Positions 23,960 through 31,975 of a stretch of DNA of 64,000 nucleotides are shown one piece after another. The DNA lies in NCBI GenBank assembly GCA_964016885.1, contig OZ024740.1:124062001-124126000 (forward strand), read 5' to 3'. Every line of letters begins with the position of its first letter. Positions within the stretch are counted from its first letter, which is position 1. The stretch is from Eledone cirrhosa (Eukaryota). Made by a program: the position numbers and the translations under genes. The notes below the pieces were generated by a model. It saw only the letters and a list, made by a program, of their open reading frames with translations. It was not told the origin of the DNA and searched no databases.

Positions 23960-24150
23960 TAATAATTGTTTCTACCTTTGGCACAAGGCCAGCAATTACC
24001 CAGTGCATTACTGGTACTTTATCTTATTGACCCCGTAAGGATGAAAGGCAAAGTTAACCTCGGCGGGATTTGAACTCAGAATGGCAAGGGCCATAATTCT
24101 ATGCATCAAAGCATGTTGTCCGACCTTCTTCCGATACTACCAATATACAC
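23960..24150 (-). mobile_element. SINE family 1
   Basis: Full reverse-complement copy with core and B-box. Confidence 0.85.
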
Positions 24151-24274
24151 TACTAGCCTCTTATGAAAATCAATTAATCATAAAAAATACAAATACTGAT
24201 TAATCAGCAAAATGGCCAACATTACCGATATCAGTTATCTGCCAATTATTCTGTATATACACAACTCCGAAGGC

Positions 24275-24560
24275 ACATAGCTTAATGATTGGTTCATGAT
24301 TGTATGGCAATGATTTTGGTTCTCAACAATGTTTTATCCTTGGACGAGACACTTTATTTCATGTCTGATACCACTTTCAGATGGCAAAAATGACTTGCAT
24401 CTGTAATTCAAATGACCAGCTGTATCACACACAGTCTCGCTGGATTTTATGGAGAACTACATTGAGTGCTTATGTCTGTGGAGTACTCAGCCATTCTCAC
24501 ATTAGTTTCATGAGCAGACTGTTTAAACAACTGGAATACTAGCTATCAGATCCAACTGAG
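24275..24560 (+). mobile_element. Old tRNA-derived SINE family 2
   Basis: ccttggacgagacactttatttcatg core, shared with 32770-32890. Confidence 0.5.
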
Positions 24561-25307
24561 CTTCTACAACAGTAGTATTTAGAATGAGTTCAGTGTATTT
24601 ATGCATCAAGATCTTGTTATGCTTATTGAAACTGTACTTTTGAAAAACACTTAGTCTATCCATCTGGCACCATGTGAAGGTACAAAGTGTACTAGATTTC
24701 ATGATGGAGATAATCATAACAATGGACATTGCAGTTAAACCAGTATTTGAGAGTGAGCTGACTGGAAAATTATGAAGACCCAGGTGACGATATATTAGAT
24801 AGAAATAGAAGATAAGGAGATAGAGGTAGCAATGGTTCTAGTGGTGCTAATAAGAATAACAGCAATGTTGATAGTTATGGTAATTGTGATATAAGAGATA
24901 ACTGAAGTGATGATATTAATAATGATGCTGATGGTGGTAATCATGATGATAATAATAATTATAGTATTGATAATGTGACTGAGTTGATAATAAAATGAAG
25001 TATGATGTTGGTGGTAATAAGGATTTCAAACATGTAATCAACTAATGCTGTTATTTCACATATCTCCAAATAGAATAACACGTTCCCACCACCAGCATCA
25101 CTACCACCACCAATACTTTCCCCAGGCAAAGTCAGCTCATATATATTTCTAATCTAAATAATAAAAGAAATAGGTGATCATTAAGATATCTTACTTCTAT
25201 TACTTACTTTTCAATATAATGTTACCTTATAGAATAGAAACTGGAATTTTGTTTTATCACAAGTAATATATATATATATATATATATAGATATATAGATA
25301 CATGTGT

Positions 25308-26015
25308 ATCATCATCATCACTGTTTTACATCCATTCTGCCACGCTAGCATGGGTTAGACGGTTGTCCTGTTGTGGGCAATGTTAGGTCGGGTGACCTTG
25401 TCTTGCTCATACGGGAACTGCTTTGGGCTTGATTTTTACAGCTGGATGCACTTCCTAACACCAACCTCATTTGCAGTGAGTGCTGGGTGTTTTTTTTTTT
25501 TTGTGGCACCTACACAACCACTTTACAGTGTGGTCTGGATGTTTATTGTCATGACACCTCCATGACCACTTGGCAGTGGGAGGGGATGGATGCATATTGT
25601 CTATATGCTTCGAATTCTGCTTGTTCCCAGAAGTCACAGTCCTTTGAGAGGTGAAATTGGGCAAGGTCCACTTTTATCACCTCATCCTGGGTCTTCTTGG
25701 GTCTCCCCACTCCATGGGTTCCATCAACCTTTAGTGCTCTGCACCGTTTTATGCAGCTGTCATCCTTCATACACATCACATGTCTATACTAACACATCCT
25801 CCTCTCCTGCACACAGCATTTGATTCCTCTTATGCTCAGTCTCTCTCTCAGTTTGTTTATGCTTTGCCGTTCACGTATATTACTATTACACATCCATCAG
25901 AGCATGCAAGCTTTGTTTCTTTCTAATCTATGCAAGGCTTCTACACACAGCACCCAGGTCTCACTACCATGTAACATTGCTGTTCGTATGCACACATCAT
26001 AGAGTCTGCCTTTCT
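25308..26015 (-). mobile_element. 5'-truncated family A RTE LINE
   Basis: MKDDSCIKRCRALKVDGTHGVGRPKKT, the 3' UTR and a (CAT)n tail on the plus strand; both ends lie in TA repeats. Confidence 0.88.
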
Positions 26016-26058
26016 TATATGTATATATATATATGTGTATATATATATATATATTTTA

Positions 26059-26697
26059 AGACATAAATTGCCTTAAATGTGTTGAAATGTCCGAAATCCT
26101 CAGCAGACAACTGAAGAGGGAACCTGCCCCTTTTTCTGCTTTCCTTTTATTTCTAAGTGCACTTTATCAAGTAACCACACAGCCTCTTGTACCTTCTATT
26201 TTTTTTTTTTTTTGCTGTGACTTGTTTTTTCTCTCCATCTCCATTGTTGTTATTAACTCTTTCCCCTTTCTCTCTCCTTCTCTCACTCATACTTTCTCTC
26301 TCTCTCTGCTCCCTTATTACTTCCATTTTCTCTCATCTCTGCCTCTTTTCGCCTACTCCCACTGAGGTTAGACTTGTTTTTCTTCACTCTCACAATCTTG
26401 CTGTCAATAAGGCATCGGACTTATGTACAGCTGCCAGTTTGACTTCTCTCTCTCCTGATTACTTACATACATGTGCTTCTCGGTATGTTTTCTGCATTTT
26501 TTCTCTTTTTTTTCTCTCTCCTTTTTTCTTTCTCCAATAACTTACAAAAGCACTGGGGATAGACATGTCGTTATTGCGTTGAAATGTCTGAGACCCCCAG
26601 CAGACAACTGAAGAGGGGAGCAGTCCCTTGATTGTGCTTTCCTTTTATTTCTAAATATACTTTATCAAGTAATCATACAGCCCCTTGTTCCTTCTAT
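26059..26697 (+). mobile_element. Direct-repeat element (period ~497 bp) with degenerate permuted hammerhead motif
   Basis: 26059-26199 is repeated at 26561-26697. Both repeats contain AGACAT..GTTGAAATGTC..CAGCAGACAACTGAAGAGGG. The spacer is pyrimidine-rich and the flanks are TA repeats. Confidence 0.7.
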
Positions 26698-26764
26698 ATA
26701 TGTATATATATATTTATATATGATAATAATGGAGCTGCGTTGCAAATGGGTTACATATGAAAAA

Positions 26765-26850
26765 TGTGTCCTTCATCAGTGGCCTTCCAACCGTCGTAGG
26801 CATTTCGTCGCTTTAAAGGCCATATACCTCAGGTTGGTGCGAGCAACGGC
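26765..26850 (-). ncRNA. Candidate non-circularly permuted hammerhead ribozyme, copy 1
   Basis: Same motif as copy 2, with CTGATGA at 26779-26773 and predicted cleavage between 26823 and 26822. Confidence 0.6.
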
Positions 26851-27393
26851 TAAAAAAAGTCGTTGGGACACGTAAATAAAGGGAACGCTAGGGTAAACAA
26901 ACAAAATGGTTTAAGCAACAGAAAGTGATGAAGAAGAAAGAAACAAGTCCCAGATTTCTATGAATATAAATTCGGTGGAATCGTGAACGAGAGAATAAAG
27001 ACCATCAAACCTGGTTGAAATGTGAGCAAGGAAGGAATTTCGCACAGGTCTAACGGGAGGAAGAAGGGGTCTGGTCTGCGAATTCGGTAAACATAAGTTC
27101 TATGAAATCGCAGACGAGAGAGAGAGAGAGAAAAAAATTAATACCGGCTTGGTCAAGTGCGCGCGAGAAAAGGATTACGGACAGGTTAAACGGGAAGAAA
27201 GGGGAGGAGGAGAGGTAGTGACAGAGAATGAGTGAGTGAAAGGTGAGGAAGAGGCTAACAGAGAGAGAGAGACTGCTAGAAAGGGTAAAGATACAAAGAA
27301 CGAAACAGACGGGTAGCAGCGGAGGAAAAAATATATGTGTAAATATGATAATAATGGAGCTGCGGCGTTGCAAATGGGTTACATATGAAAAAG

Positions 27394-27479
27394 TTTGTCC
27401 TTCATCAGTGGCCTTCCAACCGTCGTAGGCATTTCGTCGCTTTAAAGGCCATATACCTCAGGTTGGTGCGAGCAACGGC
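27394..27479 (-). ncRNA. Candidate non-circularly permuted hammerhead ribozyme, copy 2
   Basis: Minus strand reads GTTGCT-cgca-CCAACC-tg-AGGTATA^TGGCCTT-taa-AGCGAC-GAAA-TGCCT-acgac-GGTTGG-AAGGCCA-CTGATGA-agg. Confidence 0.6.
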
Positions 27480-27759
27480 TAAAAAAAGTCGTTGGGACAC
27501 GTAAATAAAGGGGACGCTAGGGTAAACAAACAAAATGGTTTAAGCAACAGAAAGTGATGAAGAAGAAAGAAACAAGTCCCAGATTTCTATGAATATAAAT
27601 TCGGTGGAATCGTGAACGAGAGAATAAAGACCATCAAATATTTATATATATATTTATATATACATATAATGTATATATATCATATATGTATGTATATATA
27701 TTATATATGTATATATATATATTATATATGTTTCTATGAATATATATATATATGTATAT

Positions 27760-29172
27760 ACTTATGATGAATTTAGCGTAATAATAGTGGTTCATCAGGG
27801 CTCCGTTCTTAGCCCCCTCCTGTTTATTATTGTCCTACAGGCTATAACAGAGGGGTTTAAGATTGGCTGCCCATGGGAACTTCTATATGCAGATGATCTA
27901 ACTCTCATAGCTGAATCCATGGCTAAACTAGAGAGGAAGTTCCAAACATGGAAGCTTGGCCTTGAATCAAAAGGCCTTAGAGTCAACTTGTCTAAGACTA
28001 AGGTTCTAGTATGTAGAAAGGAGAATAGGGCACAGGTACCCTCTGGGAAATGGCCATGCTCAGTGTGTAAGAAAGGAGTAGGCAGAAACTCCATTCTATG
28101 TCCCAAATGCAAACTATGGGTACATAAAAGATGTAGTGGGATCAGAGGTAAGCTATCTAAGAATGTAGATTTTATATGTGGCCGATGCTCAGGAGCAGTA
28201 AGTAGCAAGGACCCACTGGATGAAATCTCCTTCAACTGCCTAGATGGTTCTATAGAAATAGTAGATACCTTCCGTTTTCTGGGTGACAAAATCAGTGGTG
28301 GGGATGGGTGCTCTGAAAGTGTAGTTAGAGTGGGATGGAAAAAGTTCAGAGAGCTAATACCGCTGTTGGCCACAAGAGGTTTTTCTCTAAAAATGAATGG
28401 CAGATTGTATGATGCATGTATACGAACAGTGATATTACATGGTAGTGAGACTTGGGCATTGTGTGCTGAAGACCTTTGTAGATTAGAAAGAAATGAAGCT
28501 TACATGCTCCGATGGATGTGTAATAGTAATGTGCACGAAAGGTGAAGCATAAACGAATTAAGAGGGAGACTAAGCATAAGAGGTATCAAATGTGTTCTGG
28601 AGAGGAGATTGCGTTTGTATAGACATGTGATGCATATGAAGGACGACAGCTGTATAAAAAAAGTGCAGGGCAATGAAAATTGATGGAAGCTATGGAGTGG
28701 GTAGACCAAGAAAAACCTGGGACGAGGTAATAAAAACTGATCTTGCCCACTTACACCTCTCTAAGACAATGACACTGGATTGAGATCTTTGGTGCCATGC
28801 AGTTGTACAGAAGACCTGACTGCCATTGCATACAAACCTACAGTCAGTAGGCATCTCTTAACCCAATGTACACCGCGCCTCCACACCCCACCCCGTCTTC
28901 CCTTTCCCATTCCGTCCACTGTGTCGATGACACAACAGTCCACACTGTGAGGTGGCCATGTAGGAGACATGATGAAAAGGCTCCCAGTCCACACTGTAAA
29001 TGTGGTTGGTGTTAGGAAGGGCATCCAGCTGTAAAACAACCTGCCAGAGATGCTTCCGTGCGAGCGAGACATGGTCTCCCGGCTATTCCTGCATCAAATG
29101 AAACAAAACCGTCTAATAGATGCTGGCATGGAAGATGGATGTTAACCGATGATGAAGATGATGATGATGATT
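27760..29172 (+). mobile_element. Family A RTE LINE with PHD-like insert, 3' UTR and (GAT)n tail
   Basis: ORF 27736-28545 reads HQGSVLSP, LYADD, CSVC..CPKC..HKRC..CGRC and FRFLG. Tail gatgaagatgatgatgatga. Confidence 0.92.
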
Positions 29173-29939
29173 CATATATAAATATATATGTACATATATA
29201 TTTATATATAGAGTTGACAGAGATATTCTAATCATGGGAGTACTCGATGCATGGGGAGATGCGGTATCGGGATAGAGTTATATAAAATCCCGACACCTCT
29301 ATGCATTCAGTATGTATACACATATATACATTTCTTCACTGGTTACCAACACATATGATCAATTCTACCTATTTTTTAATCCCTATAACTTAACTGATCT
29401 TATTTGATCCTATTTCTATTTTGTTTAGCCATCTGCTCATTTAATTCTATATAACCAACCTTTTACTGTTAATTCTTCTCTTAGAAATACTCCTTGAGCC
29501 TATAAACTCCATCTATAAATAAACTTACCTTCCCACCCTCTATTCCTATGACCATTATTCCCCTCCTCTTCCTACTTCAATCCTTCCCTCTAACCACCTC
29601 TACCTCAACCCCCACTACTTCCTTCTCTTGACCCCTTGTGAGTCCAGAGACACTCACCACTGTCTCCATTAAACTAGTTTACTACTATCATAAACTCAAC
29701 AAAAGCAATAACAAATCCAGTGACCAATTTTCTCACACCTTACAAATATCAACACCCTTGAAAAAGGCTTTCTGAACAAACAAGCTGAAACTGCTTTGTA
29801 CTGTGGTTGGGATTTTACATATCTCTCCATATATATTTATATATCCACCAGCTGCATGTGTTTTTCATTGGAAGCATGACCCTCAAAAAGTATAACACTA
29901 TCCGTTTCAATACATGTTTTGAAAAAAAAAATCTTGCAA

Positions 29940-29944
29940 ACCGA

Positions 29945-30006
<62 letters not shown>

Positions 30007-30030
30007 AACAATAATAATAAATAATAATAA
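29940..30030. repeat. (TA)n and (AAT)n microsatellite, representative of many in the window
   Basis: Seen directly. Similar arrays at ~7470-7540, 13048-13107, 49660-49725, 50044-50080 and 55712-55865. Confidence 0.95.
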
Positions 30031-30409
30031 ATACAAAGACCAAAATCCGAAGAGGTCTGAATTAGGATTGTATATATATATATATATAAGTATATATAAA
30101 CACGTACAGCAAATATTTATTATTAGTATGGATTAAAAGTTTAAGCAATGAATTACTGATTTCACCCTATGTGGGATCTTCTGAAACTGAGAAAAAATAA
30201 TCTGTAGCAATAGAAGTAAATATTTCAAAAACGGTACAACCAAATATTGCTTTTAGAAAACAGGAAGACCTAACAGTGTTGCTTGAGGACATATGCAAGA
30301 ATAATTACGTCATTATGTGGAACGGGAAGAAAACTTCTTTCTATGAAAAAAATGTATGCTTGCTATGAAAAAAATCAGGAGACTAATATACTTTTTAGAA
30401 TAGCCAGAT

Positions 30410-31975
30410 ACCATCATCATCATCATTTTACATCCGCTTTTCCCTGATTGCAGGGGTGGGACGGGCCCTATTCAGCACAGCATCTCTAGACTTGTCACGG
30501 TCCTTCCTCATCTCCTCCGTGAGCTTCAGCAATCTGAGGTCCACTCTCATCACCCCTGCCCATGCTTTTTCTGGTCTTCCTCTACTGTGTCTTCCTTCTA
30601 CTGGGAATGCTTGGCACTTCTTTACCTAGCGGTCATCCTCCATGCGCATCACATGACCATATCATCGCAGTCTTCTCTACTGCACACTACAATTTATCCC
30701 TCTTATACACAGTTTCTCTTTCAACCCATCTATACTTGGTCATTCACACACATTAACATTGCACATCCAACGGAGCATGCTTGCTTCATTTCTCTCCAGC
30801 CATCGCATATCTGCAGTTGCTCCCCATGTCTCACTACCATGCAGCATCGCGCATCTCGCACAAGCATCATATAACTGGCCTTACATATTCAGGTAGAAAC
30901 CCTTCTTTGTCAACAGAGGAAGCAGCTCCCTAAACTTCTTCCAACCCGTCTTTATCCTAGATGCTATAGTTCCGGAACACCCCCTCCCATGCTAATCTGA
31001 TCACCTAGGTACCGGAAGCTATCAACCACTTCTATAGAACCCACCTGCATTGTGTCTATCATTGCAACTTCTGCTATCAAATTTCCCTGTCCATCTACTG
31101 CAGTTTGCCTGCTATCCCACTGCATCTCTTGTGTACCCAAGATCTGCATTGTGTACATTTTATAGAATTTATGCCAGCTCCTTTTCTACATATCAAACAT
31201 GGCCATTTCCCTGACGGAATCAGGGTCTTGTCCTCTTTTCTACTCATCAACACTTTTGTCTTAGCTAGGTTCACTCTCAGTCCTCTTGATTCCAACTGCT
31301 GTTTCCATAGCCAGAATTAAACTCTAGCTCCCCTATTGATTCTGCTATAAGAACCAGATCGTCAGCATAGAGAATTTCCCATGGGCAGCCAGTCTTAAGC
31401 TCCTCTGTTATGGCTTGGAGGACTATAATGAACAATAGCGGGCTGACGACGGAACCCTGATGTACTCCTACTTGTGTCTGGAATTCCTCACTAACTCCAT
31501 TCCTACTCTCACTTTACTGAGAGAACCTCTGTACATAGCTTGCACTGTCCTCACAAGCCTTTCCTCTACACTTAGTTTCCTTAAAAACCACCAGATGACA
31601 GATTGGGATACCCTATAAAAGGCCTTCTCTAGGCCAGCAAAAGCTAAGTATAGTGGCTTATTCTTCTCTAAGAACCTCTCTTGTAGTTGTTTCCCTAAGC
31701 ACTAAAAAGAGGGCATCTGTTGTACTTTTCCCAGGCACAAAACCAAACTGCATCTCATCTAATTTCACCTTTTCTCTAATCAGTTGCGCTAATATTCTCT
31801 CTGCCACTTTCATAACCTGATCCATCAGTTTTATGCCCCTTTAATTGCTCCTCTCCAGAGCATTCCCTTTACTTTTTGTAGCAATTTATGAGAATACTGC
31901 TGCACCAGTCTTTGGGTATGACTTCACCATATATAGCTTAATTGACGATGCCTGCAATCAGTTTATTTCCTACCG
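30410..31975 (-). mobile_element. Decayed RTE LINE related to family A (different 3' end), with partial PHD-like insert
   Basis: LRVNLAKTKVL..WPCLICRKGAGINSIKCTQCRSWVHKRC, FRYLGD and LYADD (~31360). (CAT)n tail at 30412. Confidence 0.88.

Follow-up and report, generated by a model that had tools for sequence, protein, structure and literature searches.

On comparative sequence evidence, a 629-nt repeat of Eledone cirrhosa (family A) encodes a real, selected hammerhead-like RNA structure that lies outside hammerhead types I, II and III and outside type SGC as defined. The conserved blocks follow the order S-G-C, which has already been published; what is new is that block C is split and that a helix (P0) and a hairpin take the place of the link between A9 and G10.1. 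In the reading preferred here, to which a probability of about 75% was assigned, family A is a non-coding repeat that a Penelope-like element (PLE) likely copies in trans, and its S-G-C core with the split block C likely self-cleaves after an AUA triplet.

The window, i.e. the whole 64,000-nucleotide stretch of the 3.0 Gb E. cirrhosa genome that was analysed, contains one family A insertion (26718..27638, minus strand). This is a non-autonomous PLE-type insertion of about 1.5 units of the 629-nt repeat, truncated at its 5' end, with (TA)n-rich DNA on both sides. As noted in the preliminary description, it holds two near-identical repeats lying 629 nt apart, which are 99% identical over 250 nt; their alignment extends to about 293 nt and includes a few substitutions and two short gaps. 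An LTR pair was considered for these two repeats and rejected, as they represent a partial tandem of the 629-nt unit. The predicted monomer between successive cleavage sites (26823..27451, minus strand; 629 nt) would be pyrimidine-rich and weakly structured (z -1.62). Between the two 3' ends of family A, both of which end in CATAT in front of (AT)n, lies an optional tail of about 42 nt (26718..26760, minus strand). The unit is non-coding; no reading frame belonging to it was found in the loci that were read.

Copy 1 of the ribozyme, read 5' to 3' on the minus strand, begins with the 5' strand of P0 (TGTCC, 27495..27499, pairing with 27400-27396) and continues with a 20-nt hairpin (27474..27493) that leads from P0 to G10.1 and has three pairs changed on both sides between subfamilies. 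These are followed by the 10.x strand of stem II (27468..27473; G10.1 at 27473, a bulged C, then TCGC, with an alternative register at 27476-27471), the 5' strand of an interaction helix (CCAACC, 27461..27466) and block S (27445..27458), which comprises the 16.x strand of stem III, U16.1 (27453), A17 (27452), the predicted cleavage position 27452/27451 and the 1.x strand of stem I. A TAA link leads to block G (27427..27440), made up of the 11.x strand of stem II (C11.1 at 27436), GAAA at 27435-27432 and the 15.x strand of stem III. The 3' strand of the interaction helix (GGTTGG, 27416..27421) lies directly 5' of stem I' (AAGGCCA), which together with CUGAUGA occupies 27402..27415 (G5 at 27406, G8 at 27403 and A9 at 27402), and the 3' strand of P0 (GGACA, 27396..27400) follows one nucleotide after A9. 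Copy 2 has the same fold 629 nt lower (26766..26871, minus strand), with predicted cleavage at 26823/26822 and a P0 of 6 bp.

The motifs named in the preliminary description, AGGTATA (27458-27452), TGGCCTT (27451-27445), GAAA, TGCCT (27431-27427), AAGGCCA (27415-27409) and CTGATGA (27408-27402), were all located on the minus strand where it had placed them, and 629 nt lower in copy 2, in an order that is none of those of types I, II and III (CGS, GSC, SCG). Its view of the core as non-circularly permuted and pseudoknotted, with stems I and III and the predicted cleavage position, was upheld by covariation and by the descriptor described below, and the upstream partner proposed for stem II was found paired both in the descriptor and in the comparison of families. 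The register given for that stem, GTTGCT/AGCGAC, is likely shifted, since the 20-nt hairpin takes up GTT, and CCAACC/GGTTGG, which had been taken to extend stem III, fits better as the helix through which stems I and II interact. P0 and the hairpin, which replace the link between A9 and G10.1, had not been recognised. Covariation points to a fold of six helices with a split block C. Its core has CUGAUGA, GAAA, an AUA triplet of the NUH type and the pair A15.1-U16.1; U16.1 and A15.1 were invariant in all 38 copies compared, CUGAnGA and GAAA being part of the pattern by which the copies were found.

Dinucleotide shuffling of the window, to a total of 138 Mb, produced 34 matches to a bare S-G-C core (stem III of at least 3 bp and stem I of at least 5 bp). 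Both window copies passed the full six-helix descriptor, which had no match in 138 Mb of shuffles, a figure that gives an upper bound on chance rather than an independent test or a proof of function because the descriptor was fitted to these families. Twelve diverged copies, hand-picked to span the subfamilies, were aligned with helix registers chosen by hand; 95.4% of the cells were paired, compared with 25-50% for partners that had been slid, and the shuffle control of this alignment ignores relatedness. Changes on both sides were seen in 8 of the 33 pairs (stem I 3, hairpin 3, stem III 1, interaction helix 1), and several of the compensatory changes are at CpG sites and could have arisen through deamination. 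Stems I and III were paired in 98-99% across copies with two-sided changes in both. Within the A group stem II had no two-sided change, partly because the search pattern fixed one of its strands.

In a comparison of six families or subfamilies, each represented by one natural copy, 154 of 156 pairs held within the copies, compared with 49-72% when strands were swapped between families; family F was left out of this count because the pattern did not match that copy, its fold being visible otherwise. The interaction helix was paired at 24 of 24 positions, and stem II could be closed at 10.1-11.1 only through the upstream strand (30/30 pairs in six families, with the family A register unsettled). 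The strand that follows CUGAnGA failed to pair with the 11.x strand in all eight family representatives. Compared with the window copy, four distant monomers had an identity of 77-80% in the ribozyme and of 56-59% in the remainder of the unit; there was little extra conservation in close subfamilies (two monomers), with 91-94% for the ribozyme and 89-91% for the rest. The folding z-score of the ribozyme was only -1.10, a value obtained by minimum-energy folding, which is blind to pseudoknots. Comparison with Rfam gave no hammerhead match in positions 24000-31000 of the window, even at E<=10.

A looser pattern gave 35 matches in E. cirrhosa, compared with 2 for controls, and led to families E and F, with a further family, G, in the same loci. 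All six helices were present in families E, F and G with letters different from those of family A, and the full core with an NUH triplet (AUA, GUC, GUU or GUA) was kept in all families. In family E the split fold is built from different stems, the triplet is GUC or GUU, and the hairpin has 10 bp. A decayed family F element lies in the window itself (26056..26697, plus strand); it has a unit of about 498 nt and the same split-core fold, is older, and meets the family A element tail-to-tail at one (TA)n tract.

Beyond this genome, a metagenome scan detected at least 120 stretches with the pattern, and 27 loci among those listed represent two related families with the split fold. A strict test requiring stems I and III and the upstream stem II was passed by 10 of 120 metagenome loci among the matches listed, and by none of 31 viral loci and none of 120 prokaryote loci among the matches listed. 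The 27 metagenome loci are animal repeat DNA and, by eye, near-identical to the 3' ends of Acropora Naiad consensi. No RT was found upstream of the metagenome copies in 12 loci.

In E. cirrhosa, an exact two-part pattern for family A was matched 135 times, compared with once for the reversed control; 135 is a minimum, because this pattern misses most of subfamily B'. The 30 closest loci were 95-99% identical. In them the 629-nt unit forms partial tandems that reach about 2.4 units; the 3' ends are fixed and lead into (AT)n, whereas the 5' ends vary, and some 5' pieces are inverted. Both orientations occurred at 13 of 48 and 4 of 28 loci in two sets. Identity between subfamilies was 70-91%, and their units measured 494-700 nt. 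Families A, E and F each have two 3' ends, separated by about 40-45 nt. Hallmarks of PLEs include partial tandems, truncated or inverted 5' ends, (TA)n targets and an optional tail; the pattern of family A matches the tandems, the inverted copies and the tail of 30-40 bp reported for PLEs in PMC8557442, and also the two internal priming sites demonstrated in vitro for one PLE (PMC11167929). The family A element is very probably a non-coding repeat mobilised by a PLE, and the non-autonomous, PLE-type character proposed in the preliminary description is supported by the tandems, truncations, inversions and two 3' ends. Many hammerheads that belong to other PLE families and have the canonical order were close to family A copies, probably as a consequence of shared (TA)n targets.

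The 5' ends of 104 copies in 88 loci (a few of which overlap, and some of which were chosen by similarity) were compared with the predicted cleavage site. None of the 104 was at the site, which indicates a template that is continuous across it, either a circle or an uncleaved multimer. One 5' end was located 7 nt after the site and eight were 3-15 nt before it; the latter perhaps reflect stalling of reverse transcription in the pseudoknot.

In the proposed life cycle, the minus strand of the element would be transcribed and the ribozyme would cut at 27452/27451 and 26823/26822. Cleavage after AUA is regarded as probable within this model. The products would be held together by about 22 bp (P0, stem II, interaction helix and stem III), with stem I staying within the 3' product, and this pairing would delay their release, making re-ligation more likely or, if strands are exchanged, formation of a 629-nt circle. 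The odds for a circular monomer are put at about even. A PLE RT/endonuclease would then nick (TA)n DNA and prime about 65 or 105-110 nt past the cleavage site, the enzyme being postulated and the 3' ends observed. Copying through the cleavage site would give the partial tandems, 5' truncations and 5' inversions seen in the DNA.

A possible origin of the ribozyme was found among Naiads, a group of PLEs described by Craig et al. 2021 (PMC8557442) as lacking canonical hammerheads; nine were flagged HHR_core and eight HHR_half_core, and no fold is given in the parts of that paper that were available. The Naiad consensi from its supplement were read by eye over the last 350-450 nt of 51 of the 54, together with CTGATGA matches 21-48 of 62. 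Within this material nine of the 54 consensi were recognised as having the split fold at the 3' end; they represent six unrelated sequence types (Naiad_Bfor, 3_Chem, Amil, Aacu, Anas, EuTe, Obim, Ovul and one further record), and some of these are among those flagged HHR_core or HHR_half_core. Each of the nine has G10.1-C11.1, a hairpin before it and P0 after A9, and stem I of Naiad_Bfor is only 2 bp. Six nematode Naiads (1-3_Nbra, Hcon, Hpol and Asuum) have intact type-CSG hammerheads at their 3' ends, by eye, with links that exceed the length allowed by the published descriptor. The remaining consensi had neither the split fold nor a CSG hammerhead in the part examined by eye. Naiad-1_Movir and Naiad_Mley, and bivalve, hemichordate and two Clytia Naiads, showed a twister-like or another conserved structured motif at the 3' end. 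The other conserved motif is possibly HDV-like. Naiads may thus swap ribozyme classes.

Like the Naiads of PMC8557442, as far as the available part describes them, family A has (TA)n targets, partial tandems, inverted 5' copies and a 30-40 bp tail, in addition to the fold found in nine consensi. An autonomous Naiad differs in having an ORF with an N-terminal GIY-YIG and a C-terminal RT, whereas the window unit has 629 nt and no ORF. Three DNA patterns for an intact Naiad gave no match in E. cirrhosa. A short peptide search detected six decayed Naiad-like remnants, and their RT had 153 matches, mostly with stops or fragmentary (150 of 3293 candidates scored). These remnants shared no sequence with the family A unit, their 3' ends had no readable hammerhead core, and no longer relatives of the remnant RT were found in a protein database search. 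The decayed Naiad-like family has a long 3' UTR that ends at (TA)n. In the loci read, no RT frame was contiguous with a family A copy, the searches having scored top candidates. Naiad ancestry is considered likely because the ribozyme architecture is common to a subset of Naiad PLEs, and a Naiad origin of the fold is moderately favoured.

The fold itself was weighed against three other readings. Chance assembly of core motifs inside a repeat could be argued from the shortness of the motifs, the AT-rich genome and the missing support from Rfam, and is nevertheless given a negligible probability in view of the absence of full matches in the shuffles and of the recurrence of the fold, built from unrelated stems, across several families and phyla. 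Within the same ribozyme, stem II might consist of GTTGCT/AGCGAC as six contiguous pairs, or might switch between that register and the hairpin form, an alternative judged unlikely but appreciable. All six of its pairs are formed in the window copy and six also in the main B' form, where 10.1-11.1 changes from G-C to A-U, and it resembles the family G stem II, ATTGCA/TGCAAT. It would, however, destroy the 20-nt hairpin, which has three two-sided changes and, in families A, B', F and G, immediately precedes G10.1; the 10.1-11.1 pair would be broken in 3 of 12 copies, the link to the interaction strand would be 4 nt rather than the 0-2 nt of other families, and rough energies for family A are -13.1 kcal/mol for the hairpin with the short stem II against -9.9 kcal/mol. 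In families F and G a stem II of 6 bp comes immediately after the hairpin, with the interaction strand next, and in families A and B' the same hairpin is followed by one extra base and then G10.1 (27473)-C11.1 (27436), a bulged C and TCGC/GCGA. The bulged register, G-(C bulge)-TCGC with GCGA-C, is therefore more likely, since GTT is taken by a hairpin conserved in four related families; 10.1-11.1 is then a G.U wobble in subfamily B'. The weak points of family A in this register, a bulge beside G10.1-C11.1 and a C.A mismatch before P0, bear on a further reading, in which the fold is selected and is non-catalytic in family A, or dependent on protein, and serves as a structure bound by the PLE enzyme near its priming sites. 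Both priming sites are within about 60 nt of A9, and the Poseidon hammerhead needed protein (PMC11167929, in the sections available). Binding alone would not obviously demand that the full core and an NUH triplet be kept in all families, or that U16.1 and A15.1 be invariant in all 38 copies, and this reading is considered rather improbable.

For the life cycle, the main alternative is that the ribozyme cleaves and the 629-nt circle is irrelevant: the PLE would copy uncleaved read-through RNA, and cleavage would only trim or destroy transcripts. In the accessible part of PMC11167929, a PLE in vitro used mainly uncleaved RNA, its hammerhead needed protein, and hammerhead mutants left insertion unchanged, the unprocessed RNA being the dominant substrate. 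The weakly structured monomer, unlike many retrozyme circles (PMC7229834, as far as accessible), and the exchange of about 22 bp needed for circularisation point the same way. On the other hand, copies of more than two units, and the finding that no copy starts at the cleavage site, are just as compatible with a circle, and animal type I retrozymes do yield circles, as reported in the same part of PMC7229834. Copying of read-through RNA is thus seen as a substantial possibility, somewhat below even odds. Concerning the enzyme, the current driver might be a PLE with a C-terminal endonuclease (Neptune, Hydra or Poseidon type), independently of where the ribozyme came from. RT fragments of these types with long open frames were present near several loci, and the Naiad remnants are old, whereas family A copies are 95-99% alike. 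Hammerheads seen beside Neptune-, Hydra- or Poseidon-type elements nevertheless had the canonical order, the 3' tails of these elements differ from that of family A, and Naiad consensi and non-coding repeats were the only places where the split fold was observed. The chance of such a driver is set just under one half.

We consider it fairly probable that A9/G10.1 is a fourth hammerhead breakpoint, and that the active four-block, six-helix form would be the missing ribozyme of many Naiads, from ctenophores to molluscs, and of many non-autonomous riders that are invisible to searches for types I-III. Together with the CSG hammerheads of nematodes, this would make PLEs the genomic home of non-circularly permuted hammerheads. 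Natural, covarying examples contradict the assumption that CUGAnGA and its stem II strand are inseparable. Non-circularly permuted ribozymes were previously known from metatranscriptomes, metagenomes and one bacterium, and would, if this reading is true, be present in animal genomes at high copy number. The finding bears on why Naiads seemed to be free of hammerheads and on the nature of their unexplained half cores, and censuses of ribozymes or retrozymes that use type I-III descriptors would miss whole families. A ribozyme whose products are still paired by about 22 bp may serve RNA circularisation.

Hammerhead variants with extra helices are said to have been described by Weinberg in 2015. 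A viroid precedent exists for a tolerated extra base between A9 and G10.1. Such a base is tolerated in the type-SGC descriptor as well (PMC10085705), and in the available parts of the same paper no insertion of more than 1-2 nt between CUGAnGA and stem II is known, the descriptors requiring CUGAUGA(U)G. The preliminary description had mentioned reports of rearranged hammerheads in eukaryotes; the S-G-C order has been published, as type SGC (Eckert 2023, PMC10085705, accessible sections), and was defined from metatranscriptomes, not from eukaryote genomes. In the accessible portions of the literature on hammerheads and PLEs (including PMC13725137, PMC10162972, PMC6765202 and PMC13282606), a split block C is not described, although the alignments of type-SGC variants could hold a similar fold, nor are permuted hammerheads in PLEs or animal genomes.

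Family A resembles the animal non-LTR retrozymes (PMC7229834; bioRxiv 10.64898/2026.07.22.740005; both as far as available) in having non-coding, dispersed tandem units with one hammerhead core each, a low GC content and a proposed mobilisation by PLEs. Those retrozymes differ in their type I hammerheads, found with type I descriptors, and in units that are typically 170-400 nt long (range 51-972), whereas the elements described here have 494-700 nt and the split-core fold and, in family A, lack a type I hammerhead (order S-G-C; no Rfam match). With the canonical types I, II and III (Rfam; PMC3088659, available part) the split form shares the core nucleotides, the NUH triplet and stems I-III, and they too often have a helix that connects stem I with stem II; the block order, the two crossing layers of helices and the split block C set it apart.

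The closest known relatives are in PMC10085705, as far as its text was accessible. Type SGC (HRIMA-1 and variants) has the same S-G-C order, full core and 3-nt link between stems I and II (here TAA), and also an interaction helix joining these stems, with strands that abut stem I' and follow the 10.x strand. It differs in that here block C is split, with the 10.x strand and the interaction strand 5' of block S, and in that P0 and the hairpin stand between A9 and G10.1; the family A ribozyme falls outside type SGC as defined, since stem II cannot be formed with the strand that follows CUGAUGA. Type CSG, with two metagenomic examples in that paper, keeps block C intact and has the same cyclic order, and moving its 5' piece (interaction strand, stem I' and CUGAnGA) to the 3' side gives the split form. 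By this reasoning, types SGC, GCS and CSG share one cyclic order, and the split form results if this cycle is broken within block C, at the A9/G10.1 junction. A new helix closes the break, so that the RNA ends leave from a side domain.
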